DNA of 64,000 bases from Pseudomonadota bacterium (GCA_043821645.1 JBDRCO010000072.1:79962-143961); one strand, 5' to 3'; counted from the stretch's first letter, positions 11,373 through 42,440 are shown. Translations and numbers: made by a program. The notes: a model not told the origin generated them from the letters alone.

Positions 11373-11945
11373 TTAGCGGGAACAACGCGGATACAGCGAA
11401 CTCTCCTGCAGCGCCTGGGTACAGACCTCCAGAGTGTGAGGCGCAAGTGCATCCAGCTGCAAACGCAGCGCCTGCTCGCACGAGGACTGGCCCAGGCAGA
11501 GCCGACCACCGTCAGCCACGGGCCCGCAGGTCCTGTCAACCAGGATGTCGCAGGTGTTGACGGCGTGGCAGTCGGGGTAACGCGCCGTGTCCTGCAGCGC
11601 GTTCCCGCAGCGCTCCAGGCCGTCCTCGAATTCCGTCATCAGCGTCACCGCGGCGCAGGCCGGAGAATCCTGGCAGGCGTGATCCGCGCCGCAGACCCGG
11701 CTCATGAGGTCCGCGCAGGCTCCGCTGGTCAACCGGCCCAGGTAGTCCGTGCAGCGTGCTGGCCAGTCCAGGGTGTCGACCACACCAGCGTCGAGGGCGG
11801 CACCAAGGTACTGATCCCAGCACTCCTGGGCCGACAGATTGTCAGCACTCAGATCGGTGGGCGCCCTGTCCTCTGCAGAACACTGCATGGCCGTCGAGCT
11901 GACCACGGCAAAACAGACAAGGAACACCGGCTTCAAGGTCGACAT
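11373..11945 (-). CDS. Cys-rich secreted protein (tandem paralog A)
   Basis: Track ORF 11373..12308; start taken at MSTLKPVFLVCFAVVSSTAMQC; repeated C...YPxC motifs (ARYPDCHAVN, SLYPRCSR). Upstream 121 codons overlap the neighbouring paralog out of frame. Confidence 0.45.
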   Translation of the reverse strand: MSTLKPVFLVCFAVVSSTAMQCSAEDRAPTDLSADNLSAQECWDQYLGAALDAGVVDTLDWPARCTDYLGRLTSGACADLMSRVCGADHACQDSPACAAVTLMTEFEDGLERCGNALQDTARYPDCHAVNTCDILVDRTCGPVADGGRLCLGQSSCEQALRLQLDALAPHTLEVCTQALQESSLYPRCSR

Positions 11946-12460
11946 GGGGGATACAGCGCCTTCTCGTTGAGGGCCGACACACACCGCTCCTGGCGCTCGA
12001 ACTCCTGCGCGCCAGTCTGCACATCGGACATGCCAGCGTCGGCCAGTGTGACGAGGGCGCCGACCAGGAGGTTGGCGTTGATGCAGGCGGGCGTCGCGTG
12101 GCAGGTGCGCGTACCCGTGGCAGGGTCCGGGCTCCCGCACACCACCTGCACGAGCTCCGCGCAGGAGTCCCCATCGAGCACCACACCCCCCAGGTCGCGG
12201 CACACGGGATAGCGCGAGACATCCTGCAAAGCCTGCTGACAGCGCTCGCCGCTGCGGTCTTGCTGCACCAGATAGCGCGCAGCCTCGCACGACAGCTCGT
12301 GTTCGCATTGCATGGCCGGACCACAGGTCGTGCTCAGGAGCACGGCACAGGCTTCCTCGGCCGGCACCAGACCCGCATCATCACCCAGGTTCTCCGGCAG
12401 CACGCAGGCCCCGAAGATGAGGCCGCCATAGACACCGAGCAGCAGGACCACGGTCTTCAT
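11933..12460 (-). CDS. Cys-rich lipoprotein (tandem paralog B)
   Basis: Start at MKTVVLLLGVYGGLIFGACV (lipobox); same C...YPxC motif set (SRYPVCRDLGG, ALYPPCRP) as 11373..11945. Confidence 0.45.
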   Translation of the reverse strand: MKTVVLLLGVYGGLIFGACVLPENLGDDAGLVPAEEACAVLLSTTCGPAMQCEHELSCEAARYLVQQDRSGERCQQALQDVSRYPVCRDLGGVVLDGDSCAELVQVVCGSPDPATGTRTCHATPACINANLLVGALVTLADAGMSDVQTGAQEFERQERCVSALNEKALYPPCRP

Positions 12461-12526
12461 GAGTGTGTAGTATACTCCATATCGGTCGCCACACACCGTG
12501 CGACCCCTGATTGCTGGTGCTGTCTG

Positions 12527-13396
12527 ATGAGATCATCCCTGGCCCTGCTCGCGCTCTATCTCCTGATCTCGCCGCACCCGGTGCGCGCGCAGGCCGAGTC
12601 CCGACCCCGCCAGAAGGTCGCGGTGTTCGATCTGCGCACCACCGGTCTCGACGACGGAGCCCGCGGATCCCTGATGGCCGTGTTGACCAAGGCCGTGGCG
12701 GCGGCCCCCTGGCTCGATGTGGTGAGCCGCGACGAGATCGCCACCATGCTCGACGCCGAGGCCCAGAAGCAACTGGTGGGCTGTGACGATACCGGCTGCC
12801 TGGCTGAGATCGCGGGAGCCCTCGACGTGGACATGCTGGTGGCAGGGAGCGTGACCCGGCTCGGCGAGTCGCTGGTGGTGACCCTGCAGCTCATCAACCA
12901 GCGCTTTGCCAATGTCATGAACCGGGTGGCTGTGACCTGGAATGGCCCGCACGATCGTCTGCCCGAGGTCCTGGAAGCCGCTGTGCAGTTGCTGATCCTG
13001 GAACCCGCAGACCGGGTGCCGGTGCGGGTTCAGGTGATCGAGGCGCCGGCGGAGACCGAGGTGTTCGTCGACGAGCACGAGAAGGGCCTGGTGGATGCCC
13101 AGGGTCAGCTCGAGGTGGTGGACGTGGCCGTGGGTCTGCACACGCTGCGCCTGACCGCGCCTGGTCACCAGATGCGCGAGATCCCCTTCGTCGCGCGCGT
13201 CGGCAAGAACATCCGCGTCAACGGAGCCCTGGAGCCGCTGCCCTTCTACGCCACCTGGTGGTTCTGGACCGGCGCGGCGGTGCTCGGTGGTGGCGCCATT
13301 CTGGCAGGTGCGGTGGCGACGGTGCTGGTGCTGTCGGATAACACCGGATCGGTGCGCATCGAAGCCAACCCCAACACGGCACAGGAGGTCCCATGA
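12527..13396 (+). CDS. Secreted protein with PEGA-like domain and C-terminal membrane anchor
   Basis: Track ORF 12098..13396; start at MRSSLALLALYLLISPHPVRAQA (ATG 12527); central VRVQVIEAPAETEVFVDEHEKG...HTLRLTAPGHQ resembles PEGA beta-sandwich; C-terminal helix WWFWTGAAVLGGGAILAGAVATVLVL. Confidence 0.5.
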   Translation: MRSSLALLALYLLISPHPVRAQAESRPRQKVAVFDLRTTGLDDGARGSLMAVLTKAVAAAPWLDVVSRDEIATMLDAEAQKQLVGCDDTGCLAEIAGALDVDMLVAGSVTRLGESLVVTLQLINQRFANVMNRVAVTWNGPHDRLPEVLEAAVQLLILEPADRVPVRVQVIEAPAETEVFVDEHEKGLVDAQGQLEVVDVAVGLHTLRLTAPGHQMREIPFVARVGKNIRVNGALEPLPFYATWWFWTGAAVLGGGAILAGAVATVLVLSDNTGSVRIEANPNTAQEVP

Positions 13397-14619
13397 TGCG
13401 GGGCGCGACCTGGCTGTTCGCACTCCTCGTGGTCGCCGCCACCAGCTGCGCCGGGGGAGGCCACGAGATCGCCCTGGGGCGACCGCAAACCCTGCGCGGC
13501 CTCGAGGGCGTCCCCCTGAGCGCGACCGCCGAGGTGTACCGCGAGGCCCAGGGATGCACGGGCAAGACCGTCACCACCGAGACCCTGGACGCGCAAGGTG
13601 ATCGCTTCGTGGGGACCCTGCACCTGCGCCCCGGCGCATATTTTTTCTGTGTGCGTTTTCGCTCCGGGGACACCGAGCTGGGTCTGTACCAGGACCTGGC
13701 TCTCGAGGTGACGCTGGGGGCCGACGACACCCTCAAGCTCCTCGATACCCATTTCCATTATCGCGACCTGGACGACGATCAGGATGGCATCGCCAACCTG
13801 GATGAGGTGCGCTTCAATTTCGATCTCAACACTCCGGACACGGACAGCAGCACCCGGGTCGACCTGCCGGCGCAGCCAAGCTTCGAGCTCGGTGCCTCGG
13901 ACAGTGCCGCAACCGTCGTCGAGATCCCGGCTCACAACATCGCGATACCCGCCTTCGCCATCGACAGGCTCGAGGTGAGCGTCGAGCGCTACCGCCTGTG
14001 TGTGGTGCGCAACCAGGATCCGTGCGCGCCGCCGCGCGGCATGGATCTGTTCGAGTTCATGAACCTCAACGCGACCGCCCGCCAGCTCCCGGCCACCGGC
14101 GTCGCGCTGGAGGATGCCAGACGTTTCTGCCAGGACGTGGCAGGGGGCGACCTGCCCCTGGAGCAGCAGTGGGAATATGCGGCACGGCCCGATGGCACGG
14201 TCTACCCGTGGGGCGACCAGCCCCCCGACGCTGGGCAGGCGCGCTGCGACTGGATCAACGCCCGCTGGCCGGCGGGTCCGTCCTCGTACCCGTGCTTCGG
14301 GGACAGTACGCCGGAACTGGTACCGGTCGCCCACTTTGACCTGACCGGAGATCTTCGCGGCTGCAGCCGACGCCCGGGCTCTTCGGCGCCGGACGGCCCC
14401 TGCCAGATGGCCGGCAACGCCTGGGAGTGGACGCGCAGTGACTTCGTGCCCTACGATGGTCCGGCCTGGCCTTCGCCGGGTGCGCTGACCGTCGTCCGCG
14501 GTGGCAGTGCGGACTCCCTCGACCACTCTCTCCGCTCGACCTTCCGCGTGGGGGTGGCCCCGGACCTGAGTGGCAGCGAGGCCTTGGCACCCCTGATCGG
14601 GTTCCGCTGCGTGTACTGA
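13393..14619 (+). CDS. FGE-sulfatase (formylglycine-generating-enzyme-like) domain lipoprotein
   Basis: Signal/lipobox LFALLVVAATSCAG; C-terminal half carries RFCQDVAGG...GNAWEWTRSDF...RGGS motifs typical of the FGE-sulfatase fold; start overlaps previous stop (ATGA). Confidence 0.55.
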   Translation: MMRGATWLFALLVVAATSCAGGGHEIALGRPQTLRGLEGVPLSATAEVYREAQGCTGKTVTTETLDAQGDRFVGTLHLRPGAYFFCVRFRSGDTELGLYQDLALEVTLGADDTLKLLDTHFHYRDLDDDQDGIANLDEVRFNFDLNTPDTDSSTRVDLPAQPSFELGASDSAATVVEIPAHNIAIPAFAIDRLEVSVERYRLCVVRNQDPCAPPRGMDLFEFMNLNATARQLPATGVALEDARRFCQDVAGGDLPLEQQWEYAARPDGTVYPWGDQPPDAGQARCDWINARWPAGPSSYPCFGDSTPELVPVAHFDLTGDLRGCSRRPGSSAPDGPCQMAGNAWEWTRSDFVPYDGPAWPSPGALTVVRGGSADSLDHSLRSTFRVGVAPDLSGSEALAPLIGFRCVY

Positions 14620-14631
14620 CGACACAACACG

Positions 14632-16512
14632 ATGCGCATCCAGACACGCCTGCTCCTGATCCTGCTCGTCGTGGCGCTCGTGCCCGTGACCGTGAGCGGT
14701 GTGACGGCCGTGATGCTGAGCCGGCGCGTGCTCACGCGGCAGATCCAGCAGGTGCAGGTCACCGAGGCGAGGACCCTGGCCGAGAACGTCGACAGCTACA
14801 TCGGAGAGGCACTGCGCGAGTTGCGCCTGGTCGCCGACATCACACCCTTCGCCACCCTGTCCGGCGAAGAACAGCGAGGTGCCCTGGGCCTGGTCTACCG
14901 CCTGCACGATGGATTCAACGTGGCCGGGCTGGTGGACAGTGCCGGCGAGGGCGTGGGACCCCCCGTCTTCACCACGGACAAGGCCAGCGACCCCAGCACC
15001 GCGCGCCACCACCCGGTCAACGAGGCCGAGCTGGTCCGTTTTGCCTCCAACATTCCGCTGCAAGCGGCGCTCACCGCCGGCGCCGCGGTGGGCCCGGTCT
15101 ACGTGTCGACCGAGAAGGGCTTGCCCCTGCTGGTGCTTGCCGTGCTGGTTCCGGGGCGGGTTCAGGATCGCGAGATCGTTCTCGCGGTGGAGCTGGCCCT
15201 GGATCCCGTGCTCAAGCGCGTGCAGGAGACGGCGTCGCAGGTCGGTGCCACGGCCTACATCGTGGACAGCCGCGGCCGCGTGGTGGCTCACAGCCTGCCC
15301 GAGGTTGCCCTCGCGCGCAGCGACTTCAGCGAGCGAAAGCCGGTCCAGGCCATCACGGGCAGCGCGCTCGATAGCCACGGCATGGTCCGCTACCGGGCCG
15401 GCGACACCCGGCTCGCCTCGGCCTTTGCCAGGCTCGGACGCTTGCCCTGGGGTGCCGTGGTCGAGCGGCCCGAACAGGAGGCCTTCGCCCCTGCCAACCA
15501 GATCGCCAAGCAAACCATCTTCTGGATCGCCGTCGCCCTCATCTGCGCCATCGCCGCAGGCCTGGTACTGTCGCGGAGCATTGGCGACCCCCTGCATGCA
15601 CTGACGCGGGTCGCCGAGTCCCTGGGGCAAGGCGACCTCGACGTGAGGGCCCGCGTCTCCGGCCGCGACGAGCTGTCGCAGTTGGCCTCCTCCTTCAACC
15701 AGATGGCCGACGCCATTGCCCGGCGTGACGAGGAGCTGCACGCCTTTGCCGACGACCTGCAAAAGCGTGTGGAGGAGCGAACCCGCGAACTCAAGCTGGC
15801 TCAGGACCAGCTGCTGCAATCCGAGAAGCTGGCTGCGGTGGGCGAGCTGGGCGCGGGCGTGGCACACGAGATCAACAACCCGCTGGCCGGTGTCCTGGGC
15901 TCTGCCCAGCTGTTGCTGCTGCGCACGGAGCCCGACCATCCGTCCCGCGAGCACCTGGGCAACATCGAATCCGAAGCTTTGCGGATCCGCGAGATCGTGC
16001 AGAACTTGCTACAACTGGCCCAGAGCAAGGAGAAGGCGGCGGGGACCTTGATCGACGTCAACCGGGTGGTCGAGGCCGCCCTGAGCCTAGTGGCCAGACC
16101 CATCATCGCCCAGCGCATCCGCGTGCACAAAGACCTGACCTCGGGATTGCCCAAGATCCGGGCCTCGGCCTCGGATCTGCAGCAGCTCTTCATGCACCTG
16201 CTGTCCAATGCCAAGAACGCCATGCCCGACGGCGGCGAGCTGCGTATCGCCTCGAGTGCCATCGAGAACAGGCTGGTCAAGGTCACCATCGCAGACACCG
16301 GCATCGGCATTCGCCAGGAGGACCTGGACAAGATCTTCGAGCCCTTCTTCACACGCAAGGAGGACTGGGACGGCAAGGGTCTTGGCCTGTCCGTCGTCCA
16401 CCGCACCGTCGAGCAGACAGGTGGCCGCGTGACCGTCGAGAGCGAGCGCGGTCATGGAGCCTGCTTCACGCTGGTCTTCCCCATGGCCCGCGACGGCCTG
16501 CACCTGGCCTGA
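14632..16512 (+). CDS. Sensor histidine kinase with periplasmic sensor and HAMP domain
   Basis: N-terminal TM, second TM IFWIAVALICAIAAGLVL, HAMP-like linker, H-box AGVAHEINNPLAGV, N/G boxes (LLSNAKNAM, DTGIGI, GKGLGLSVV). Confidence 0.7.
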   Translation: MRIQTRLLLILLVVALVPVTVSGVTAVMLSRRVLTRQIQQVQVTEARTLAENVDSYIGEALRELRLVADITPFATLSGEEQRGALGLVYRLHDGFNVAGLVDSAGEGVGPPVFTTDKASDPSTARHHPVNEAELVRFASNIPLQAALTAGAAVGPVYVSTEKGLPLLVLAVLVPGRVQDREIVLAVELALDPVLKRVQETASQVGATAYIVDSRGRVVAHSLPEVALARSDFSERKPVQAITGSALDSHGMVRYRAGDTRLASAFARLGRLPWGAVVERPEQEAFAPANQIAKQTIFWIAVALICAIAAGLVLSRSIGDPLHALTRVAESLGQGDLDVRARVSGRDELSQLASSFNQMADAIARRDEELHAFADDLQKRVEERTRELKLAQDQLLQSEKLAAVGELGAGVAHEINNPLAGVLGSAQLLLLRTEPDHPSREHLGNIESEALRIREIVQNLLQLAQSKEKAAGTLIDVNRVVEAALSLVARPIIAQRIRVHKDLTSGLPKIRASASDLQQLFMHLLSNAKNAMPDGGELRIASSAIENRLVKVTIADTGIGIRQEDLDKIFEPFFTRKEDWDGKGLGLSVVHRTVEQTGGRVTVESERGHGACFTLVFPMARDGLHLA

Positions 16513-16557
16513 GGGGCCGCGGGCTGGTAGTCTCTGGGTGAGGGAGAGAATGCATCC

Positions 16558-17304
16558 GTGAACCGGCCGACCATGCTCATCGTCGACGACGAGGCCACCC
16601 TGCGGACCGTGCTGGGTGCCATGTACACCGACGCTGGCTTCGAGGTCCGCACCTGCGGCAGCGCGGAAGAAGCCCTGGTGGACCTGGCCGCGAAGCCCTG
16701 CGACGTGCTGGTGGTGGACAAGAACCTTCCCGCGATGAACGGCATTGATCTGGCGCGCCAGGTGCTCGGCCTGGGCGCGGCCCAGCATGCGGTGATGATC
16801 ACAGGCTACCCCTCGACGACCTCGCTCATCGAGGCCATCAATGTTGGCATCCGCGGCTACCTCATGAAGCCCTTTCGAACCCTCGACGACGCGATCAAAG
16901 AAGCGCACTTCGTGGTGGACAATCCGCCCCGGCGAACGCGCCTGGGGCCGGTGGCCCTGCGCGCACACCTCGATGCAAGCAGCCCTCTGGATCCAGCGCC
17001 GAGCGCGGTGGTGGTGGTCAGCGACGTCAAAGTGCGCGACCAGTTCACGCGGCACCTGGGTGGGCCCATCCGCACCTTCGGGTCGGTGGAGTTCGGGTTG
17101 GCCGCACTCTACGATCGACCGCCCGACGTCGTCGCGGCGGACAGCGTCGTCGATCTGCTGCGAATGATCGAACGTGCTCCCGCGGCCTGTGGGTGTTACG
17201 TGGGCGCGTCGCCTGGCTTCGAGGACGCCCTGCGCTTGATGCGTGCTGGTCCCATGCTCGTGGCCGAGCCCGAGCAGCTCCGCGAGGGGAAACGGGGCAC
17301 ATGA
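16558..17304 (+). CDS. Response regulator, receiver domain plus degenerate C-terminal half
   Basis: MLIVDDE acidic pocket, phospho-acceptor-like D in VLVVDKNLP, conserved K in YLMKP; C-terminal 120 aa resemble a second receiver without the acidic residues. Confidence 0.6.
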   Translation: MNRPTMLIVDDEATLRTVLGAMYTDAGFEVRTCGSAEEALVDLAAKPCDVLVVDKNLPAMNGIDLARQVLGLGAAQHAVMITGYPSTTSLIEAINVGIRGYLMKPFRTLDDAIKEAHFVVDNPPRRTRLGPVALRAHLDASSPLDPAPSAVVVVSDVKVRDQFTRHLGGPIRTFGSVEFGLAALYDRPPDVVAADSVVDLLRMIERAPAACGCYVGASPGFEDALRLMRAGPMLVAEPEQLREGKRGT

Positions 17305-18287
17305 AGCGAAGCGTGCAGCTGGTGATCGTGCTGGTGCTCATCCTGGGCGGTGCGGCACTGCTGTACAGGCAGCTCTTTCCAGATGGCGGGGGCTCCCAGG
17401 TCTCGGCCACAGACGCGGCAACCCGGGTCCTTCCGAAGCTGGATGCAGCACAGGGCCCCGACGAGGACGCGGGTCGCGAGGATGGAGCCACGGCCACCGC
17501 GACGCGTGCCGAGATCATGGACCTCCGGGGGGTCGCGCAGCGCCGTCTGCCCGGGGGGCGCTGGGCAGACATCACCCAGGGCGACGCCCTCTCGCTCGAT
17601 GACACCATTCGAACCCTCGGCGGTGGCAGCGCCCTGGTGCAACTGGGCAACGCGGTCCAGGTTCGGCTGACGCCACACACCGAGGTCACCATCCGCGAGC
17701 TGACAGAGCGCACCTCGCGCGTCCGCATCGAAGAAGGCCGCATCGTGGCAGAGGTCAACCCGCAGGGGCGCACCGTGCTGCGTGTCGAGGCCAAGGGTTC
17801 CCGGGCCGTGGCTGAGGCCTCCGCGGGCAGCTTCTCGATGATCAGCGACGGCCGTGGCCAGGTGGCGGTCGCCACCAGTGCCGGATCGGTCAAGCTGGTT
17901 GCGGCCGGCGAGAGCGTGGACATCAGCGCCGGACAGGTGGCCCGGGTCAGTGGCGATGCAGCCCCCACGGCTCCGGCGGCCATTCCGACCTCGCTGTACC
18001 TCAAGGTCGCGGCCCCCTTGCGTGCGATCCAGCGCGAGAAAGAGACCGTGGTCCAGGGCACCGCAACACCCGGGGCACTGGTGCGCGCGGGCGAGCAGGT
18101 GGCCATGGCCGACGAGCGGGGGGCCTTCCGACTGCGCGTACCCCTGCGCGAGGGCAAGAACGACGTGCAGATCCGCGTCACCGATGTCGAGGGCCGGGAG
18201 CGCACTCAAAAGATGCCGGCGATCACCGTCGATACCCGCGAGCCCACGATCCAGAACCCCCAGGTGCAGTGGGGCGAGGACCCCTGA
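17301..18287 (+). CDS. FecR-domain protein (membrane-anchored)
   Basis: Track ORF 17193..18287; start at MKRSVQLVIVLVLILGGAALLY overlapping upstream stop; FecR-like beta-rich core (ALSLDDTIRTLGGGSALVQLGNAVQVRLTPHTEVTI). Confidence 0.5.
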   Translation: MKRSVQLVIVLVLILGGAALLYRQLFPDGGGSQVSATDAATRVLPKLDAAQGPDEDAGREDGATATATRAEIMDLRGVAQRRLPGGRWADITQGDALSLDDTIRTLGGGSALVQLGNAVQVRLTPHTEVTIRELTERTSRVRIEEGRIVAEVNPQGRTVLRVEAKGSRAVAEASAGSFSMISDGRGQVAVATSAGSVKLVAAGESVDISAGQVARVSGDAAPTAPAAIPTSLYLKVAAPLRAIQREKETVVQGTATPGALVRAGEQVAMADERGAFRLRVPLREGKNDVQIRVTDVEGRERTQKMPAITVDTREPTIQNPQVQWGEDP

Positions 18288-18362
18288 GCTCGGCCTCGCC
18301 CCGCCACCCAAACCCATGGTCCTTGCACGGCCACAAAGTGGCATGGTGGTGCCATCGCCGCT

Positions 18363-20360
18363 ATGCTGAAACGCGATGCGTCCGGAGTTCGCAGCGAGGA
18401 GAGTCCTGTGATCGGCAGCGTGTGCGCGCTGACCTGGATGGTGCTGTCCCAGCCCATGGCTGTGGATGGCATCCTGCCAGCCGGGGATATCCAGATCTCA
18501 GTCTCGCCGGACCATCTGGACCTCGGCGCCGAGCAGCCCGCCACGCTGACCCTGCATGTGTTCAACGCCGACGGCACACCCCAGGATCAGACGCCACCTG
18601 TCCTGCTCGCGTCGATGGGAACTGTTGACGGGCTCCGACGCGTGGCTCCCGGTGTGTTCGTGGCGTCCTACCTTCCTCCTCGATCTGGCTCCCCGCGGGT
18701 CGCGATCATCCTGGCTCGGACCCGGACGCGCAGCGGCCTCATTGCCGGTTGGGCCCGAATTCCGTTGTGGGGCAAGGGCAAGGTCAGCCTCGTCACCAAG
18801 CCGCAGTCCCAGGTCTGGCTCCGTATCGGCGAGACGGCGTTCGGACCGTCCGAGTCCGATCAGAAGGGCCGCGCCAACATCGCCATCCGGGTGCCGCCTG
18901 GGCCCCGCCAGGGCATTGCCGAGACCCTGGATCTCGCGGGCAACACGAGCAAGAAGACCATCGATCTGGGGGTCCGGTCCTTCAACCGGATGGCTGCCTT
19001 CGTCCTCGACGAGAGCATGGTGGCCGATGGCAGCGAGCAGTCCGGCCTGATCGCCTTCGTCGTCGACGACAGGGGAGATCCTCTCATCGAGGCGGACATC
19101 CAGGTCCAGGTCCGGCGCGGCCAGGTGGGTACCGTGCTGCCCCTGGCGCCAGGCGTTTATCGCATCGCCTACAGCTCCCCGAGGGAGATCGGCGATGGCA
19201 AGGACAGCGTCGAGCTGAGCCTCGCCCTGGACCAGACCTCGCGCCGGAACCTGCAGATCGCGCTGACCCCGGGCCTTCCCCAGCGCATTGAGCTGTCAGT
19301 GTATCCCCTGGAGTACCGGGCGGGGTCCGCGGTGCGCCCGGTCATCACCCTGCGGGCTTTCGACGCGTCGGGAAACGTGGCGCCCGCGTCCCTGGTGGAC
19401 CTCACCACCCAGGGTGGCGTGCTGGGCAATGCGCAGCCGGCGGCCCAGGGCGCCGTGCGCATCCCGATCGAACTCAGCGACCGATTCGGCGGGCGCGAGG
19501 TTCTGGTGGTGCGCGCCGAGGCCGTGCGCGGCCAGGCCCAGGCGGAGCTTCGTGTGCCCTTGCTGCCCGACCGCTGCGCCAGGATCACCCTCCGCGGTCC
19601 CGAGCAACTCATCGGCGACGAGCGGCGCGCGCAGTTCACCCTGCGCTGCACGGACCGCTTTGATAATCCCGCGCCCGCGGACGGCATCCAGGTCACGAGT
19701 GCTCTGCTCCTCGTCGAGAACGTGCAGCGGGCTGACGACGAGGTTCGCGTGACCGTGCGCACCCCCTTTCTGACCGCGCCCGACGACGCCACGCTGCTGG
19801 CCCAGGACGGCGAGGCAAGGACCAGCTCCCGCGTCCACCTGCTCCCGGGGATTGGTGTGCAGGCCGTGCTGGGGCCTCGCCTGGTGCTCGGCTGGGCCTA
19901 CGGCGAGCGCTGGCTCACCGGCGCGGCCCTGGACTGGTCGCTGGGGCTCCCGATTGGCCGCGACATGCTGCTTGTGGGCATGAGCCTGGGCGCGCTGCAG
20001 TCCCCCTCCGAGCGGCCACAACCAGGCCTCACGACGGGCGTACGCCGGCTGCTCACGTCCCCCCTGGTGTTCGCCGCGCAGTACGAAAAGCAGGTCCATC
20101 CGCGCATCGCGCTCCATGGTGGGTTGAGCGCAGGCCCGCTGTTCGTGGCACCGACGCTCGAACGCAACGGCGCACGCGTCGATGCTGCACTGCGAACCGC
20201 ACTCCTCGCGGAGGCCATCCTGGGCGCGGGACTGCGCCTCGGTGATGGCATGTTCACCCTGGACCTGCGGGGAGGCTATGCCCTACCCCTTGGCGACGAG
20301 TCCGGGCTCGGCATGCTGTCAGGGCTCTCCATGTCGATGGGCTACCGCTACTACTTCTGA
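18363..20360 (+). CDS. Large secreted protein with tandem Ig-like modules and C-terminal beta-rich (barrel-like) region
   Basis: 665-aa ORF; repeated beta-sandwich-like segments; C-terminus ...SMGYRYYF ends in aromatic residue as in OM barrels. Start uncertain (ATG 18363 or downstream GTG). Confidence 0.45.
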   Translation: MLKRDASGVRSEESPVIGSVCALTWMVLSQPMAVDGILPAGDIQISVSPDHLDLGAEQPATLTLHVFNADGTPQDQTPPVLLASMGTVDGLRRVAPGVFVASYLPPRSGSPRVAIILARTRTRSGLIAGWARIPLWGKGKVSLVTKPQSQVWLRIGETAFGPSESDQKGRANIAIRVPPGPRQGIAETLDLAGNTSKKTIDLGVRSFNRMAAFVLDESMVADGSEQSGLIAFVVDDRGDPLIEADIQVQVRRGQVGTVLPLAPGVYRIAYSSPREIGDGKDSVELSLALDQTSRRNLQIALTPGLPQRIELSVYPLEYRAGSAVRPVITLRAFDASGNVAPASLVDLTTQGGVLGNAQPAAQGAVRIPIELSDRFGGREVLVVRAEAVRGQAQAELRVPLLPDRCARITLRGPEQLIGDERRAQFTLRCTDRFDNPAPADGIQVTSALLLVENVQRADDEVRVTVRTPFLTAPDDATLLAQDGEARTSSRVHLLPGIGVQAVLGPRLVLGWAYGERWLTGAALDWSLGLPIGRDMLLVGMSLGALQSPSERPQPGLTTGVRRLLTSPLVFAAQYEKQVHPRIALHGGLSAGPLFVAPTLERNGARVDAALRTALLAEAILGAGLRLGDGMFTLDLRGGYALPLGDESGLGMLSGLSMSMGYRYYF

Positions 20361-20382: not shown

Positions 20383-21906
20383 TCAGCGTGCTGTGAGATC
20401 GACGCTGCGCTGGACGCGTTCTCCAGCCCGGACCTCGACCTGGATCGTGCGCGTCAGGTCGAAGACCGGGTTGTGCAGGGTGATGCGGTGGGTTCCGACC
20501 GGCAACGAGAGGTCGCGCAGCGGTGTATGGCGCTTGATGGACACCCCGTCGATGGCCACCTGCGCCCAGGGCTCGGCGTGGAGATCCAGCCAGCCGTAGC
20601 CGGATGCCGCGTCCGCCGCCATCGAGGGCTGCGCCACCCGGATCGGTCTGCGGTGCGTGGGGCGGACAACGCCCGCATCCCGCCGCGACATCTCGTGCCC
20701 ATCCTGTGCCGTCCGCTGCACTGCCGCATCCTCCGTCGTGGGCGCGAGAATTCCGGCCTCGCGGCCAACGACCTGCATCACCAGGGCTGGCGCAGCATCC
20801 CGGGGCGTCTGCAGCACTGCAGCGTCGAGCACCTGCCCCTCCCCGGGTCGCTGCCAGTCCCGTAGGGCGATCCCTGTGGCCAGCACGACCAGCCCCACCA
20901 CCAGCGCTGGCACCCACCAGCGCCTGGAGTTGCCCGTGTCGGGCCTCCCCACGACCAGGGTCCGGCGTCGCGGTGCCGGACGCACCCTGTCCTCGAGCGG
21001 CTGGCGCTGACCCAGCACCTCGCTCATCAGCTCCTGCACCGGCACCGGCCCCAGCGACAGGCCCTCCTCGCGGGCGAGACGGCGCACCTGAGCGGCCACC
21101 TGCTCCGCGCCAGAAGGCCTCTCGCCGGCATCTCGCTGCAACAGCTGCAGGACCAGGGCATCGAGACCCGGCATCACCCCGTCGCGCAGCGACCCGGGCG
21201 CTGGAATCTCGGCATCGCGAACAGCCTGGACCGTGTCCAGGTCGGTGTCGCGGTCAAACAGGGGCCGACCGGCCAGCATCTCCCACAGCACGATGCCAGC
21301 GGAGAACAGGTCACTCGCAGGAGTCAGGGCCTCGCCGCGGGTCTGCTCGGGCGACATGTACGCGAACTTGCCCTTGAGGTCGCCGACCCGCGTCTTGTGC
21401 GTCTTGACCACCACCTGCACCACGCCGAAGTCCGTGAGCTTGACCGCACCATCGGTCCCGCACAGCAGGTTGCCCGGGCTCACGTCGCGATGGATCAAGC
21501 ACAACGTGCAGCCCTCCTCGTCCTCCATGGCATGCAGGTAGGCCATGGCGTCGAACAGGGCACAGGCCACGGTCAGGGCGAAGGCGAGCGGCAGGGGCTG
21601 ACTGCGGCGGTCCTGAAGCAGGGTGGCGAGGTCCGTGCCATCCACCAGCTCCATGGCCAGGAAGGGTCCCTCCTCGTCGCTGCCGTGTTCGAGCAAGCGC
21701 ACGACATTGGGATGGCGCAACCGCGCCCACACCCGGCACTCGTCCTGGAACATCTCGACGTAGTCCGGGTCCGCGTCGAAGGGCCGCTTGATGCGCTTGA
21801 GCGCAACCAGGGTGTCCCGGTCCAGGTCCCGGGCCAGGCAGATCTCTGCCATGCCGCCGTCGGCGAGCAGACCCAGGGATTGGTATCGAGACGTGCGTGG
21901 TTCCAT
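20383..21906 (-). CDS. Serine/threonine protein kinase with TM segment and C-terminal PEGA-like domain
   Basis: Track ORF 20383..22854; start at MEPRTSRYQ (ATG 21906). Hanks motifs: VALKRIK, HRDVSPGN, DFG, AYMSPE; TM WWVPALVVGLVVLATGIAL; C-terminal beta-rich segment. Upstream 316 codons of the track ORF are antisense to the next gene. Confidence 0.7.
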   Translation of the reverse strand: MEPRTSRYQSLGLLADGGMAEICLARDLDRDTLVALKRIKRPFDADPDYVEMFQDECRVWARLRHPNVVRLLEHGSDEEGPFLAMELVDGTDLATLLQDRRSQPLPLAFALTVACALFDAMAYLHAMEDEEGCTLCLIHRDVSPGNLLCGTDGAVKLTDFGVVQVVVKTHKTRVGDLKGKFAYMSPEQTRGEALTPASDLFSAGIVLWEMLAGRPLFDRDTDLDTVQAVRDAEIPAPGSLRDGVMPGLDALVLQLLQRDAGERPSGAEQVAAQVRRLAREEGLSLGPVPVQELMSEVLGQRQPLEDRVRPAPRRRTLVVGRPDTGNSRRWWVPALVVGLVVLATGIALRDWQRPGEGQVLDAAVLQTPRDAAPALVMQVVGREAGILAPTTEDAAVQRTAQDGHEMSRRDAGVVRPTHRRPIRVAQPSMAADAASGYGWLDLHAEPWAQVAIDGVSIKRHTPLRDLSLPVGTHRITLHNPVFDLTRTIQVEVRAGERVQRSVDLTAR

Positions 21907-22002
21907 TGCGACCCGGTCCAGGTTGCCTGTATCGTAGCCTGCCTGTTCAGGTGCGCAAAACTGCAGGTGGCGTGTCGTCCACGGAACCGGGAAGCATCGC
22001 TC

Positions 22003-23208
22003 GTGCTCGCTTGCTCCAGCATCCTGCTTGCTGCTCATCTGGCCCTGGCCAGCGCTCCCCGCGCGGCCATCCTGTCCCTCGACGACGGGGAGCAGGTCCC
22101 GGCGCAGCAGGCAGCCATCGAGGCGAGCCTGGCGGTCCGCGGCTACAGCAGCATCGACAGTGTGGATGCCCGCAGGTTGCTCGGCGACGAGCCTCCCGAG
22201 CAGGATGCCCAGGCGCTGGCCATCGAGGCCAAGAAAGCCTTTGGCGACTTCGATAGCACCACCGCACGCGAACGTCTGCGACAGGCCCAGGACATTCTGT
22301 TTGAATCGCCACGCATCCTTTCCGAGCGCACGCTGCTGGCGGACCTGCACCTGCTCGAGGGCCAGATCGCGCTCAGCGCGGGGCAGCACGACGAGGCCCT
22401 GCAGGCCCTGGCCCGCGCGGCACTGCTCGAGCCGGACAGGACCCTGCACCCCGGGCTGTATCCGCCGGACCTCATCGAGTCCTACACCGAGGCCCAGGAT
22501 TGGCTGAAGACCCAGGCCCAGGGCGCACTGGTGGTGACGACCTGGCCGGAGCATGCGCATGTCTACGTCGACGGCGTGTTCCGCGGCGAGGCGCCGGCGG
22601 TGATCGAAGGTCTGCCCGCAGGCTGGCACTACGCCACAGCCGCCGTGGATGGTCGGGGCGCGCGCACGCGGCCTTTCCTCGTCGAGGGAGGGCGCTCCAC
22701 ACAGACCACGCTGTTCGTGCCGGATGAAGCGGTCCGGGAGCAGCTCCCTTCGCTGCTGCGACGCTACCGGGCCCAGCCGGACGATGCCGATGTCGCCGCC
22801 AGGTTGCTCACCGCGGTGGGTGCACAGCTCCTCGTCGCCACGGGCACGAGCCACGACGCGGCGGCCCAGATTCTCGACGACGATCAGGCCGCGGTGGTCG
22901 TGGAGCCCGTCCTGGCGTCCACGATCGCCATCGAGGCGCGGGTCGACAAGCTCCTCGAAGCCCTCAGGAAAAAGCGCCCGGCCTCGCTGCCCGGCGTGGG
23001 CACCACAGCCACCTCGGACAGTCCACCGGCCTCGCTCGACCCGTCCGGCGATGGGGCTCCCTCACCCTGGCCCTGGATTGCCGCCGGGGCCGCAGGCCTG
23101 GTACTCGCAGGTGGAGTCACCGCCGCCATCGCCATCGCCATCGCCCTGGGGCAGCCCGAGGAGCCGGAGGATCGCGTCGATATCTACCTCGGGGGGCCCA
23201 GCCTGTGA
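22003..23208 (+). CDS. Secreted protein with TPR-like helices, PEGA-like domain and C-terminal TM
   Basis: Track ORF 21397..23208; earliest plausible start after the divergent kinase gene is GTG at 22003 (VLACSSILLAAHLALASA signal-like); PEGA-like VVTTWPEHAHVYVDGVFRGEAP...; C-terminal helix WIAAGAAGLVLAGGVTAAIAIAIAL. Confidence 0.45.
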   Translation: MLACSSILLAAHLALASAPRAAILSLDDGEQVPAQQAAIEASLAVRGYSSIDSVDARRLLGDEPPEQDAQALAIEAKKAFGDFDSTTARERLRQAQDILFESPRILSERTLLADLHLLEGQIALSAGQHDEALQALARAALLEPDRTLHPGLYPPDLIESYTEAQDWLKTQAQGALVVTTWPEHAHVYVDGVFRGEAPAVIEGLPAGWHYATAAVDGRGARTRPFLVEGGRSTQTTLFVPDEAVREQLPSLLRRYRAQPDDADVAARLLTAVGAQLLVATGTSHDAAAQILDDDQAAVVVEPVLASTIAIEARVDKLLEALRKKRPASLPGVGTTATSDSPPASLDPSGDGAPSPWPWIAAGAAGLVLAGGVTAAIAIAIALGQPEEPEDRVDIYLGGPSL

Positions 23209-24098
23209 TGCGGCTGCGCTCAGTTGCGCCGTGCGCGAGCGTCCTGGCCCTGGCCTGGATCCTCGGTGCATGCCCCAAGCCAGTGCCACCGCCAGTGCGC
23301 ACCGTGTCCATCAAGCCGTACTTCAAACCGTCGTGCGACTCGATCTGTGTCAGCACCTGTCTGGCCTGCGTCGACACCCTGCAGGTGTTCGCCATCGATG
23401 CCACGGGCCAGCGCCTGGTCGAGCGCTGTCTGGACGTCACCGGACGCTGGGAAACCCTGTGCGACCTGGCCACCGGCAGTGCCCAGCGATTGCTCGAAGA
23501 AGTCCCGACGAAAGAACCGGTGGTGCTCGAACTGCGGGCCTACCGTCGCCGCGACGCCTGGCGCCCGGATGCCGGTGTCGACGGAGGCAGCCTGTGCCAG
23601 GTGCTGCCGCGCAGCCGTGCGTGGAGCTGCGATGTCCACCAGAGCGACCTGATGCTGTGGGGCCGCGCGCGGCCCACGGATCTGAGCGCGGATGGGGGTC
23701 AGAGCAGCATCCTGGTCGAGTTCGAATGTCGCGCGGGCTGTGACTGCGTGGACATCGCAGCCCGCAAGCCGAGCTGCCCCGACGATCTGCCCGAGAGTGC
23801 GTGCGTCCCCGGCGATAGTTGCAGGCTGGGCTGCATCGATCAGACGGGCTGTTTCGAGGGTGCCCTGCGCTGCGACGTCGACGCCGGGCACTGTGACCCC
23901 GAATCTGCCGTCGGCTCGGCCACCCTCCCTTTCTGTGCGTCCTGCCAGCGTGCCAGCGACTGCCAGGACAGGTTGTGCATTGGCCGCCCGGGCCAGGATG
24001 GGGGCTTCTGCGCGCGCTCCTGCCCAGACCTGTCCTGTCCGCGCGGGGCGAAGTGCACAGCCATCGGCAATGACGGCGGATACAGCACCCTGCCCTGA
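23205..24098 (+). CDS. Cys-rich lipoprotein
   Basis: Lipobox ALAWILGACP; 30+ Cys in C-x-C / CxxxC clusters; start overlaps previous stop. Confidence 0.5.
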   Translation: MMRLRSVAPCASVLALAWILGACPKPVPPPVRTVSIKPYFKPSCDSICVSTCLACVDTLQVFAIDATGQRLVERCLDVTGRWETLCDLATGSAQRLLEEVPTKEPVVLELRAYRRRDAWRPDAGVDGGSLCQVLPRSRAWSCDVHQSDLMLWGRARPTDLSADGGQSSILVEFECRAGCDCVDIAARKPSCPDDLPESACVPGDSCRLGCIDQTGCFEGALRCDVDAGHCDPESAVGSATLPFCASCQRASDCQDRLCIGRPGQDGGFCARSCPDLSCPRGAKCTAIGNDGGYSTLP

Positions 24099-24129
24099 AC
24101 CTGCGGCGGCCCCACGACGACGGGTGCGC

Positions 24130-24981
24130 TCAGGCCAGAGCCACGGCCTCGGCCACCACCACCTGCCCGCGGTCCTCCCGCACCCTGCAGGCCGCCACCA
24201 CCGGGTCGTGCTCGAAGACCAGGATCCAGTTGTCCTCGACCGCCTGGGCCAGGATGGCTTTCTTCTCCTCGATGGTGGTCAGGGGATACAGGTCATAGCC
24301 CATGACCCACGGGATGCGCAGATGGGCTGTGGTCGGGATCACGTCGCCACAATACAGCAGGGTCTCGCCGCCACCCCGAACCCGTACCAGCTGCTGACCC
24401 ACGCTGTGTCCCTCGCTGACCAGCACCTCGACACCGTCGAAGATCTCGGTATCTCCGTCGAGCAGGTGCAGCCGGCCGCTGCGCGCGAGCAGGGTCACCT
24501 CGTCGAGCTTGAACGAACCGCGATCCTTCTCACTGGCGTGCTCTGCCCACTTGAAGTGCCGGCGCTGCAGGTGGTGGGTCGCCTCGGAAAATGTCGGCAC
24601 GAGGGTGCCCGCGCCATCCCGGCGCACGATGCCTCCGGCATGATCGAAATGCAGGTGGGTCAAGATCACATCCGTGACCTCGTCCGGCGCGACGCCGATG
24701 CGCTGCAGGGCGCCCAGGACACCTCCAGCCACGGGAGCCAGGTCGTAGATATCCTGCTCGCGCTCGCTCCAGTTCTCGCCGGCGCCGGTGTCGACCAGGA
24801 CCAGCCGACCGGCCACCCGCAGCAACAGGCAGCGCAGTGCCAGCGGGATGCGATTGCGCACATCCGCAGCGATCTGCTTCTCCCACAGCGGCTTGGGAAC
24901 GACGCCAAACATGGCGCCACCGTCGAGCGCGAAGCGTCCCATCTCGATCGTTCGAACCTCGATCTCGCCCAGCTGTCGCAT
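24130..24981 (-). CDS. MBL-fold metallo-hydrolase
   Basis: HxHxDH zinc motif (LTHLHFDHAGG) and downstream His/Asp ligands; start taken at MRQLGEIEV. Confidence 0.6.
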   Translation of the reverse strand: MRQLGEIEVRTIEMGRFALDGGAMFGVVPKPLWEKQIAADVRNRIPLALRCLLLRVAGRLVLVDTGAGENWSEREQDIYDLAPVAGGVLGALQRIGVAPDEVTDVILTHLHFDHAGGIVRRDGAGTLVPTFSEATHHLQRRHFKWAEHASEKDRGSFKLDEVTLLARSGRLHLLDGDTEIFDGVEVLVSEGHSVGQQLVRVRGGGETLLYCGDVIPTTAHLRIPWVMGYDLYPLTTIEEKKAILAQAVEDNWILVFEHDPVVAACRVREDRGQVVVAEAVALA

Positions 24982-25138
24982 CCTCGAACCTCGCACCTCA
25001 GACGTCCTGGTCGACCCCCTGGCACCTCGTCAATTCTGGGCCGTTCTCGCTCGAGCTGCAACGCTGGCGCTCGCGGGCACCGACGCCAGCGGCTTTCCTT
25101 GCACGCGGCCGCCGGAACGCGATACCACAGGAAAGGTG

Positions 25139-27844: not shown

Positions 27845-27923
27845 TTGCGACGAATTTTGCCCAGGTGCTAGCATGCGGTAGTCTGGTGTTCACACCTCGA
27901 GGTGCCGTGCGGGGACGGCACCA
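27845..27923 (+). promoter_or_regulatory. Candidate sigma-70-type promoter and 5-prime UTR hairpin upstream of first MshEN gene
   Basis: TTGCGA (27845-27850), 18-bp spacer, TAGCAT (27869-27874); then perfect inverted repeat ggtgccgt-gcgggg-acggcacc (27901-27922) 16 nt before the ATG at 27939. Confidence 0.25.
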
Positions 27924-27938
27924 GGTATAGGTTTGTCG

Positions 27939-28712
27939 ATGGATCGACGCATCCGGTTGGGCGAATTACTGCTGCGTGCGGGGCTGATCACCGAGATGCA
28001 GCTCAAGGCCGCCCTCGCGGAGCAGAAGAAGTGGGGAGGACGGCTGGGCACTATCCTCGTCAACATGAATTTCATCTCAGAGGATATCCTGGTCAAGGGC
28101 CTGGCACGCTTGCTCGAAGTGCCCCGGGCGGACTTCGAGAACATGAACGTGCCCGACGTGGTCCTGCAGCGCTTCGACCCCACCGACTGCCAGACCCGTG
28201 GCTACCTCCCGGTGCAGTACAGCCACGCAGAGAAGAAGCTCACCGTGGCATTCGTCGACGTCAACGATCTCGCCCTCGTCGACGAGCTGCGGTTCAAGCA
28301 CGGCCTCAACATTCAGCCCGCCATCACCGGCGAGCACGCCCTGCAGGCCTCGTTGCGCAGTCTTTTTTACAGCGAGGCGCTGGACGCGAGTGTCACCGGC
28401 CAGGAGCCTGGGCTCAAGCTCATCGACAGTCGCGGCGGGACCCTGGTCAAGAACCGCGCGGAGATCTTTGGCAACGAGCCTCCGCCGGCGCCGGTGGCCA
28501 CCACGGGGGTTGAGCGTGCACCCGCCGGTGTGGCCGCGGCCCTGCCGCCCCCCCCGGTGGGCGGGATCCCCGCAGGACTGCTCAACGAGCTCGAGATCGC
28601 GCAGCGGCGCCAGTCCAGAGCCATCAAGACCGTCCTGGAGCTCCTGATCGAGAAGGGAGTGATCTCTCGCGAGGAGTTCGTCGCCAGCGTCAACAAGCGC
28701 AGCGACAGTTAG
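27939..28712 (+). CDS. MshEN (T2SS GspE N-terminal) domain protein, predicted c-di-GMP receptor
   Basis: N-terminal RLGELLLRAGLITEMQLKAALAEQ fits the 24-residue MshEN motif RLGxx(L/I)(L/I)xxG(L/I)(L/I)xxxxLxxxLxxQ; followed by GGRLGTILV...ISEDILVKGLARLL second motif and remainder of a GspE_N fold; Pro/Ala-rich linker and short C-terminal helix. Confidence 0.65.
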   Translation: MDRRIRLGELLLRAGLITEMQLKAALAEQKKWGGRLGTILVNMNFISEDILVKGLARLLEVPRADFENMNVPDVVLQRFDPTDCQTRGYLPVQYSHAEKKLTVAFVDVNDLALVDELRFKHGLNIQPAITGEHALQASLRSLFYSEALDASVTGQEPGLKLIDSRGGTLVKNRAEIFGNEPPPAPVATTGVERAPAGVAAALPPPPVGGIPAGLLNELEIAQRRQSRAIKTVLELLIEKGVISREEFVASVNKRSDS

Positions 28713-28767
28713 GAGACTCAAACGGGCCGCTCGTCGATGACACGGCGGTGCGCACCCGGAGCGACTC

Positions 28768-37723: not shown

Positions 37724-37969
37724 GTCCCGTCCGTCGCGAACACCTCGACGCGGTACATGGATGCGAAACCCGGGCCATCGGGATCAGGTCCGAAGGCGCA
37801 GAAGATCCGGGCAGATCGAGAGGTGATCCGGATTTCGCCCATGATAAATGCGGCCGATTTCATCCAGAGTGGCTGATATGCTCCAGCAGCCTGGTGGATC
37901 CGAACCTCCCGCTCCTGCCCCGACAAGCGCGGATCAGGTGCGGCGCGGCTCTGCCGGGCGGAACATGGC

Positions 37970-40911: not shown

Positions 40912-42440
40912 ACACACCTCGTCGCTGGCGTCTGGGCCTGCGCGAACGGCTGGTGGCCGCGGTGCTGGGCGTGCTCACGGCACTGCTCGCCATCACCGCC
41001 GCGCTCGTCGTCATGCGCTCCGAGCTGGCCCTGGTCGAGGCCCAGCAGACGCGCTTCGCCGCACTCACGCGTCAGCTCGCGGACTCGCTGCGCTACGCCG
41101 TGCTGGCGCAGAGTCCCGCGCTCATGGAGCCCTCCCTCGACGTGTTCGCGCGCAGCCCCGACCTGGTGCAGGTGGAGGTGCGCGACGAGCGGCGTGCCTT
41201 GCTGGCGGTGAAGAGTGGCCCCCAGGGCCCCGTGGGTGATGGCGTCGAGCGCAGTGACGTGGTGACCGTGGAAGTTCCCGTCAACACCCGCGAGCAGGCG
41301 CCCGGCGATGAAGACGATGAGCTCGCGATCTTTGGTCTGGGCAGCGAGGGCACGCGCCTGGTGGGCTACGTGCAGGCGGTGTTCTCCACCGAGGCCACGG
41401 CACGCATCCAGGACAGGCTGCGGCGCGAGATCCTGGCGGCCTTCACGATCCTGGGCGGGCTGGGATTGCTCGCCGTGTTTGGGCTGGCGTCGTCCGTGGT
41501 GCGACGCACGCGCTTCCTGGCGCAGGCGGCGGCTCGGGTGGCTGAGGGCGACCTCGGGGTGCGCGTCGAGGACCCGGCAAGCGACGAGCTGGCAGCTCTG
41601 GCGCAGGACTTCAACGCCATGACCACCGCCCTGGCCGAGCAGCACGTCGCCCTCGACCAGGCCGCCTCGCAGCTCGCCGAACAGGAAGCGCTGAGTGCCA
41701 TTGGACGTGCCACCGCAGTCATCGCCCACGAGCTCAAGAACCCCCTGGGCATCCTGCTCGGAGCTGCCCAGATCGCGGCCAATGACGAGCGTCCCGAGAC
41801 CGCGCGGCGCAAGGCTGCGGGCATCATCGTCGAGGAGGTGCAGCGGCTCGAGCGAACCCTCAACGAGCTGCTTCACTACGCCCGTCCGCGTCCGGCCAGC
41901 CGCATGCCGGTCGACGTCCTGGAGCTGTGCCGGCGCAGCGTGCAGCGCGTGCGTTCGCCGGGCGGCCCCGCCGAGGGCGCGTCCATCGACGTGAGCGGCG
42001 AGAGCTGCACGGTGCTCGCCGACGAGCAGCAGCTGGCGCAGATCCTGCTCAACTTGCTGACCAACGCCGCCCAGGCCGGTGCCAAGCACATCGCGATCGC
42101 CGTGCAGCGCGCGGCAAGCCGCGTGCGTGTCGAGGTGCAGGACGACGGACCCGGGATCGCCCCGAGTGTGCAGGATCAGCTGTTCCGACCCTTCGTCACC
42201 ACCAAGCAGCGGGGAGCGGGCCTGGGCCTGGCTGGCTCGCGGCGCATGGCACGGGAGAACGCAGGGGACCTGCGACACGAGCCGGGCGAACAGGGCGCGC
42301 GCTTCGTGCTGGAACTCGAGATGGCCGCTCCAGGGAGCCCGCCACGACCGTCGGAACCACACACAGAGGCGTCAGAGCCAGGGCTCGACACCGCGGGGGC
42401 GGCGCACGAACGCCCTGACAAGAAAGAGGTCCAGGGATGA
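40908..42440 (+). CDS. Sensor histidine kinase (two TM, HAMP, HisKA, HATPase)
   Basis: Track ORF 39933..42440; start MNTPRRWRL (ATG 40908, ATGA overlap); H-box TAVIAHELKNPLGIL, N-box LLNLLTNAAQAG, G-boxes DDGPGI / GAGLGLAGS. Confidence 0.65.
   Translation: MNTPRRWRLGLRERLVAAVLGVLTALLAITAALVVMRSELALVEAQQTRFAALTRQLADSLRYAVLAQSPALMEPSLDVFARSPDLVQVEVRDERRALLAVKSGPQGPVGDGVERSDVVTVEVPVNTREQAPGDEDDELAIFGLGSEGTRLVGYVQAVFSTEATARIQDRLRREILAAFTILGGLGLLAVFGLASSVVRRTRFLAQAAARVAEGDLGVRVEDPASDELAALAQDFNAMTTALAEQHVALDQAASQLAEQEALSAIGRATAVIAHELKNPLGILLGAAQIAANDERPETARRKAAGIIVEEVQRLERTLNELLHYARPRPASRMPVDVLELCRRSVQRVRSPGGPAEGASIDVSGESCTVLADEQQLAQILLNLLTNAAQAGAKHIAIAVQRAASRVRVEVQDDGPGIAPSVQDQLFRPFVTTKQRGAGLGLAGSRRMARENAGDLRHEPGEQGARFVLELEMAAPGSPPRPSEPHTEASEPGLDTAGAAHERPDKKEVQG

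Follow-up and report, generated by a model that had tools for sequence, protein, structure and literature searches.

We analysed a window of 64,000 nucleotides (nt) from a Pseudomonadota bacterium (GCA_043821645.1 JBDRCO010000072.1:79962-143961), which has a G+C content of about 68% and carries a cluster of genes for envelope and signalling proteins. Calling of open reading frames (ORFs) in the window placed six genes, here named g1 to g6, between positions 12527 and 20360, all on the plus strand:

12461-12526, no strand: intergenic region 5' of g1, divergent, 66 nt, locally AT-richer, GTAGTATACTCCATAT
12527-13396, + strand: g1, secreted protein with a membrane anchor, 289 amino acids (aa)
13393-14619, + strand: g2, lipoprotein with an FGE-sulfatase fold, 408 aa
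14632-16512, + strand: g3, HAMP histidine kinase, 626 aa
16558-17304, + strand: g4, receiver protein, 248 aa, GTG start
17301-18287, + strand: g5, FecR-domain protein, 328 aa
18363-20360, + strand: g6, Ig-repeat and barrel protein, 665 aa

The start and stop codons of g1 and g2 and of g4 and g5 overlap in an ATGA (at 13393 and 17301, respectively), and the remaining gaps measure 12, 45 and 75 nt. These values reproduce an initial annotation of the sequence, which had described six genes on one strand with 4-nt overlaps at the same two positions and gaps of 12-75 nt. It had interpreted them as one envelope signalling operon with a FecR-type anti-sigma-like sensor, and had suggested a relay whose sigma factor or output is encoded elsewhere. 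The genes do make up a signalling cluster directed at the envelope, in which a two-component pair is combined with exported and membrane proteins. The six genes also stand together as a block, but the unit that is conserved comprises four of them, g3-g6, to which g1 and g2 are joined as a separable accessory pair, and the anti-sigma interpretation did not hold.

Both neighbours of the cluster lie on the minus strand: the upstream gene starts at 12460, and a Ser/Thr kinase gene occupies 20383-21906 downstream. With opposite-strand neighbours on both sides, g1-g6 are therefore one strand-delimited block. A promoter for the whole block would have to lie in the 66-nt region 12461-12526, the only possible site. 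Scans for sigma-70 consensus promoters and terminators gave no match in this region or in the gaps of the block, and the sigma-54 -24/-12 pattern had no match upstream of g1. Rfam and repeat searches and promoter and terminator scans over 11-22 kb also returned nothing above chance. The absence of promoter and terminator matches in the gaps is consistent with g1-g6 being carried on a single transcript. The g1 and g6 products are identical to hypothetical proteins from an NCBI metagenome-assembled genome (MAG) labelled 'Pseudomonadota bacterium'.

The two central genes encode a histidine kinase and a response regulator, as had been proposed. The kinase g3 starts with a transmembrane (TM) helix, followed by a periplasmic Cache-like domain (residues 34-277), a second TM helix and the HAMP, HisKA and HATPase_c domains. 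Pfam recognizes dCache_1, HAMP, HisKA (7.7e-14) and HATPase_c (2.8e-24), and the H-box reads AHEINNPL. Full-length orthologues in the related loci L016 and L018 share 34-36% identity with g3, sensor domain included. The regulator g4 consists of a canonical receiver domain (REC, Pfam Response_reg) and a second, REC-like domain, so that the kinase and receiver features of a classical two-component system are both present. The receiver residues D10, D11, D54, T82 and K104 are invariant in six close orthologues, and D54, T82 and K104 remain so across eight orthologues that include distant ones. The g4 family can be recognized by the signature DKN[LM]PxxxG / ITGYxS / KPF. Based on the adjacency and co-conservation of the two genes, g3 and g4 are predicted to be cognate partners in phosphotransfer.

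The C-terminal domain of g4 (~120 aa) was matched to receiver domains in the PDB at 2.2e-10 with a profile built from close and distant orthologues; the distant ones were needed for this, as a profile from the six close orthologues alone reached only E=0.2 to the NtrC receiver. The domain lacks the conserved Lys and is probably a pseudo-receiver. No DNA-binding, AAA+ or enzymatic output domain was found in g4, for which Pfam and NCBIfam returned REC matches only. Myxococcus FrzZ likewise has two receiver domains and no output domain, which implies action via protein-protein contacts. g4 can be likened to FrzZ-type regulators by architecture only, since it has two receiver-like domains without an output domain but no conserved Lys in the second. 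Other members of the regulator family (L024, L046, L049, L071) occur in two forms, either REC plus REC-like domain (~250 aa) or REC followed by a coiled-coil-like tail of ~45 aa. Both forms are without a DNA-binding domain.

The name FecR-domain protein for g5 was confirmed by Pfam (PF04773, E=8.5e-9, 36.2 bits with the cut-off at 24). The protein is organized into a cytoplasmic tail of 4-5 residues, a TM helix, a variable low-complexity linker, the FecR domain (101-198) and an Ig-like domain (234-312). Judged by this layout, g5 is a bitopic inner-membrane protein. Just MKRS precedes the TM helix, and the reading frame could be extended upstream by no more than 36 codons, which would overlap g4. 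A short cytoplasmic tail is found in all 13 aligned close homologues. The C-terminus matches Glucodextran_B/Big_13 in Pfam and SiiE and glucodextranase domain B in the PDB; PDB sequence and profile searches with g5 gave only such Ig-domain matches and no solved relative of the FecR domain. An exhaustive family search found 1247 cluster representatives at E<=1e-3 (clusters at 50% identity), 151 of them at <=1e-30. Most members are ~300-335 aa long and share the TM-FecR-Ig layout, and the 150 best are similarly short. Those that we checked are annotated as 'hypothetical' or carry only a generic FecR-family label.

A FecR domain encoded next to an outer-membrane (OM) barrel could mean that g5 holds an extracytoplasmic function (ECF) sigma factor encoded elsewhere and frees it on a signal from its OM partner, as the initial annotation had suggested. 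We consider this highly improbable. The cytoplasmic tail leaves no room for an anti-sigma domain of ~80 aa, and Pfam showed neither such a domain or DUF4880 at the N-terminus nor DUF4974 at the C-terminus, where the Ig-like domain is found instead. Sigma-70 r2/r4 domains were unmatched in the ~40 window ORFs that were scanned (not all small ORFs among them), so that no ECF sigma factor was seen among them. The barrel of g6 has eight strands and is not a TonB-dependent transducer with a signalling domain; the sole TonB-dependent receptor in the window (37877-40039, + strand) lies 17 kb off and has Plug and barrel domains but no signalling-domain match. Finally, the related loci described below show no recurrent family beyond the histidine kinase, the response regulator, g5 and g6.

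The comparison with FecA-FecR-FecI illustrates this. In both systems an OM barrel is encoded beside a periplasmic PF04773 protein anchored in the inner membrane (IM), and an OM signal is, or in our case would be, relayed across the periplasm. However, the cluster is without a cytoplasmic anti-sigma domain, DUF4974 or an ECF sigma factor, its barrel combines 8 strands with an Ig stalk whereas the TonB-dependent transducer has 22 strands, and on the cytoplasmic side its conserved partners are the histidine kinase and the regulator.

The large protein g6 combines Ig repeats with a barrel, as the initial annotation had recognized. A signal peptide is followed by an array of about five Ig domains of the invasin-like type (41-495) and by a C-terminal barrel (500-665) ending in YRYYF. 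The Pfam matches to Invasin_D3/Big_1 are below threshold. The barrel resembles NspA, OmpA and OmpW, and it has the eight antiparallel strands and the aromatic C-terminal residue of 8-stranded OM barrels. Barrels with an even number of strands have both termini in the periplasm, and 8-stranded ones have no export pore. The Ig stalk, which precedes the barrel, should therefore project inward from the outer membrane, and the barrel model thus points to an Ig array that faces the periplasm. Display of the array in the manner of an autotransporter was considered and rejected, because the barrel has 8 strands. Intimin and invasin also join Big_1/invasin-type Ig domains to a barrel, but there the domain order is the reverse of that in g6 and the barrel has 12 strands instead of 8; no passenger export is expected for g6. 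OmpA, like g6, combines a barrel of 8 strands with a periplasmic part. In g6, however, that part is N-terminal and made up of Ig domains, whereas OmpA has a peptidoglycan-binding domain.

The first two genes differ from the core in their distribution, and their initial description as a PEGA-like lipoprotein and an FGE-sulfatase-domain lipoprotein needs partial correction. g1 has a cleavable signal peptide (MRSSLALLALYLLISPHPVRA|QAE) without a lipobox Cys, its first 85 residues are free of Cys altogether, and a TM helix is found near the C-terminus (residues 244-269). Lacking a lipobox, it is therefore a secreted protein with a membrane anchor and not a lipoprotein. An AlphaFold2 (AF2) model (mean confidence score pLDDT 86.7) shows an alpha/beta domain, a beta-sandwich (166-232) and the C-terminal TM helix. 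The sandwich is PEGA-like, with a weak match to PF08308 that stays below threshold (15.6 bits, cut-off 20.8, E=0.015); the more distant g1 homologues P0037 and P0038 do carry PF08308. In Foldseek searches, the alpha/beta domain matched TolB-N, LpoB, PelC and CsgG at 2.5e-7 to 1e-4, and also FlgT. An alignment of 17 g1 homologues revealed an invariant GCxxxxCLAEIAGAL motif.

g2, in contrast to g1, does carry a lipoprotein signal with the lipobox AATSC (LLVVAATSC). It is followed by an N-terminal beta-rich region, a DxDxDG motif resembling calcium-binding sites, and an FGE-sulfatase fold (PF03781, residues 163-407, 1.5e-28), so that the domain searches supported the FGE assignment as well as that of FecR. 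This holds at the level of the fold only. The positions of Cys336 and Cys341 of human FGE are not occupied by Cys in g2 (aligned segment RGGSADSLDHSLRSTFR), and the catalytic pair is likewise missing from the orthologues in L001, L005 and L013, that is, from four orthologues in all. The fold is non-catalytic because these cysteines are missing, and on the same grounds we ruled out that g2 is an active FGE or sulfatase maturation enzyme. The best PDB match is SUMF2, an inactive paralogue, and there is a weak NCBIfam match to PorK/GldK of the type IX secretion system (T9SS). The calcium-binding-like motif, in full DxDxDGIxNLDE, lies at residues ~122-140 between the beta-rich region and the FGE fold and is conserved in 4/4 g2 orthologues. 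On three short metagenome contigs (L050, L060, L088), a response regulator gene of the DKNLP type is closely preceded by the end of an FGE-sulfatase-like ORF. These ORFs match the g2 hidden Markov model (HMM) at E values of 1e-8 to 4e-13, a hint that proteins with an FGE fold may be repeatedly associated with this regulator family. In L013, a g1-g2 homologue pair is present on its own. g1 and g2 are a lineage-specific accessory pair that is separable from the core.

All six genes are syntenic in L001 and L005/L006, and the g3-g6 part is found in L002 and L007, where it is cut by the contig end. These close relatives keep the flanking genes too, and conservation of the block is therefore uninformative at that distance. 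The start/stop overlap of g4 and g5 is retained in L002, L005, L007 and L009, and translational coupling of the two genes is seen in five lineages. More distant contexts were compared at 34-43% g5 identity. With HK for a histidine kinase gene, RR for a response regulator gene and X for another gene, the order is HK-g5-g6like-X-HK in L011, with the RR on the opposite strand, RR-g5-g6-X-HK in L016/L017, and HK-RR-...-HK-g5-PKD-g6 in L018. The Ig/barrel protein of L016 aligns to g6 over residues 78-663. L018 (5168-8185 and 10954-12996) further contains a FecR+Ig protein of 1005 aa and a pair of HAMP kinases, and a PKD-repeat protein is inserted between its g5 and g6; the module seems to have been duplicated or expanded here.

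A metagenome scan with the regulator signature DKN[LM]P[AG][MIT][NS]G yielded 80 loci, including some with unrelated regulators that were also drawn in. HMM matches to g5, g6 and the g3 sensor adjoin the regulator in L024, L049/L098, L052, L056 (on the opposite strand), L064 (with the regulator 3.5 kb off), L071, L075 and L092, and a partial set of core partners is found near it in L022, L023, L029 and L046. The g3 sensor domain was matched in 10 of the 80 motif-selected loci, and all three partners occur together in six of the 30 loci that are at least 8 kb long. All-vs-all clustering of the ORFs from 21 related loci (GC content 0.49-0.75) placed g6 in 16 and g5 in 14 of them and revealed no recurrent families other than these two and the kinase and regulator. 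Altogether, the four-gene core recurs with shuffled gene order in ~15 independent metagenomic loci that span 49-75% GC. All examples of the module that we found derive from uncultured organisms. A scan of the GTDB representative genomes with the g5 alignment returned only the MAG of L002 itself, with back-translated patterns too lineage-specific to judge cultured Myxococcota.

It could be argued that g1-g2, the kinase-regulator pair and g5-g6 are independent modules that are adjacent by lineage-wide synteny alone, given that the flanks are syntenic too in close relatives, that g1-g2 stand alone in L013 and that g6 does so in L004. For the cluster as a whole this seems quite improbable, as the association of g3-g6 outlasts loss of synteny, shuffling of gene order, strand inversion and the wide range in GC content. 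For g1-g2 only, the explanation is plausible.

The same data bear on the possibility that the cluster encodes a structural or adhesion apparatus. g6 would then be a displayed adhesin or a periplasmic scaffold and g1, g2 and g5 would be assembly or anchoring factors, while the kinase and regulator would merely control or monitor it. The Ig array of g6 is indeed invasin/intimin-like, the g1 fold is common to the ring-forming envelope proteins PelC, CsgG and FlgT, the FGE fold has a structural role in T9SS PorK/GldK (to which g2 has its weak match), and the g6 family also occurs away from kinase and regulator genes in L004 and L008. However, a regulator without a DNA-binding domain is not a direct transcriptional controller of the operon, an 8-stranded barrel speaks against this explanation, and the translational coupling of g4 and g5 together with the co-conservation of g3, g4, g5 and g6 fits one signalling complex better. 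We therefore regard such an apparatus as unlikely.

The reading that we prefer, with a probability of roughly 55%, is that the six genes specify a sensory apparatus that spans the envelope and signals through a two-component phosphorelay. In this reading, g6 would hang its Ig stalk from the outer membrane into the periplasm, where the Cache domain of g3 and the FecR-Ig part of g5 would rise from the inner membrane to meet it and form an OM-IM bridge. Changes in the periplasm or in or at the outer membrane (a ligand, envelope damage, spacing or contact) would alter this bridge and shift the kinase/phosphatase balance of g3, which would phosphorylate D54 of g4. Since g4 has no DNA-binding or other output domain, it should affect a target encoded outside the cluster, either by contacting other proteins or as a phosphorelay intermediate or a phosphate sink. 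g1, with the fold of periplasmic ring and adaptor proteins, and g2, with its non-catalytic FGE fold (compare SUMF2 and PorK/GldK), may tune or scaffold the sensor as lineage-specific adaptors.

Several points weigh against this model. Whatever goes beyond the domain content and the co-localization of the genes is what we infer from them. The periplasmic orientation of the Ig array, in particular, depends on the topology rule for barrels and on AF2 models of shallow alignments (8 and 17 sequences). Among the 30 long loci selected by the regulator motif, only 12 contain a core partner, and many of the regulators in this set probably belong to other families. Moreover, L004 holds g6 unlinked to the other genes, and in L009 the regulator-g5 pair is found beside a Ser/Thr kinase with no histidine kinase nearby. 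These two loci come from the same sample (ERZ28505417), have a GC content of 0.586 and 0.581, and probably belong to one genome in which the system is dispersed, so that co-encoding of the four parts is not obligatory. In L004, the g6 orthologue is located among ABC/DUF4350 genes, and the Ser/Thr kinase next to the overlapping regulator-g5 pair of L009 is a divergently encoded protein of 959 aa. The kinase input may have been exchanged or relocated in this lineage.

Other systems relay the state of the envelope in a way comparable to the one proposed here. In the Rcs (RcsF-OMP-IgaA-RcsCDB) and NlpE-CpxA systems, an OM-associated component reports across the periplasm to an IM kinase via an intermediary IM protein. 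The resemblance of the cluster to these systems and to FecA-FecR is functional only. No component was seen to be related in sequence or fold to those of Rcs and NlpE-CpxA, and in contrast to these systems the cluster has an integral barrel bearing an Ig stalk as its OM element and a regulator that lacks DNA-binding domains.

Among described systems, the closest analogue is the BiofilmReg operon of Burkholderia, which encodes a response regulator, a periplasmic LysM+FecR protein (COG4254), a CHASE2-PAS histidine kinase and a DUF4136 lipoprotein (PMC5192318). Both systems combine a two-component pair with a periplasmic FecR protein and a further envelope protein, and in both the FecR gene directly follows the regulator gene; an order of the BiofilmReg type is seen in g3-g4-g5-g6 here and in RR-g5-g6-X-HK of L016/L017. 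The differences concern the sensor (Cache-HAMP versus CHASE2-PAS), the FecR protein (TM-anchored with an Ig domain versus LysM), the regulator (REC plus REC-like versus OmpR/CreB-type DNA-binding) and the fourth protein (Ig stalk and barrel versus DUF4136 lipoprotein). In agreement with this, Pfam found no CHASE2-PAS, LysM, OmpR/CreB-type or DUF4136 domains in g3-g6. Clusters of a CHASE2 adenylate cyclase, a FecR-domain OM protein and a TPR protein have been described in Campylobacterota (PMC9239204). There, too, a FecR-domain envelope protein is the conserved genomic partner of a membrane sensor that is unconnected with sigma factors, but the clusters have a cyclase instead of a kinase as transducer, and their sensor domain and accessory proteins are different as well. 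Together, these clusters and BiofilmReg provide a precedent for sigma-free FecR-domain partners of kinases and cyclases. The module follows the same logic as both precedents, while the shared domains are only REC, FecR and the kinase core.

The surroundings of the cluster contain further envelope and signalling genes. Divergent from g1 are two tandem, slightly overlapping genes (11373-11945 and 11933-12460, both on the minus strand) for small Cys-rich secreted proteins of 190 and 175 aa. The second of these has a lipobox-like LIFGAC. The pair gave no Pfam match and is conserved in L001 and L005. On the other side, the convergent Ser/Thr kinase (20383-21906, - strand) carries a C-terminal PEGA domain. 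It is followed by a PEGA protein (~22100-23208, + strand), an ORF of 297 aa (23205-24098, + strand) and a metallo-beta-lactamase-fold protein (24130-25029, - strand). The run 20383-25029 is syntenic in the close lineage only (L001, L002, L005, L007). The downstream PEGA protein (~22.1-23.2 kb) was considered as a paralogue of g1, but the match was not significant. Further downstream, two adjacent genes (27882-28712 and 28741-33006, both on the plus strand) encode MshEN-domain proteins, one of which is 1421 aa long and without another recognized domain; MshEN genes are also found downstream in L002 and L005. A sigma-54-dependent response regulator (42419-43828, + strand) and the TonB-dependent receptor mentioned above are located 17-22 kb downstream of the cluster. 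No link of the cluster to either of them was found.

We found no description of the four-gene core as a unit in the literature that we searched. The core amounts to a two-component system with trans-envelope accessory proteins and does not represent a new principle. A further-reaching proposal, which we make tentatively and regard as possible but rather doubtful, is that the core is a widespread undescribed class of trans-envelope signalling systems in Myxococcota-like bacteria. In such a class, the g6 stalk would dock on g5 to gate the Cache-HAMP kinase. Signalling in the style of FecA/FecR would thus have been rewired to a His-Asp phosphorelay, with a tandem-receiver regulator that works at the post-translational level, for instance on the machinery of polarity, motility or the envelope, and not on transcription.

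If the relay works as proposed, it would add a fairly common architecture to the short list of routes by which the outer membrane can address a cytoplasmic phosphorelay (Rcs, NlpE-Cpx and FecAR-type). It would also assign a concrete role to many FecR-domain proteins that are unable to be anti-sigma factors, and it would reveal a new use for an OmpA-like barrel as the anchor of an Ig stalk that spans the periplasm. Because the 151 g5-family clusters are without specific names, a single experimental characterization would annotate many genes.

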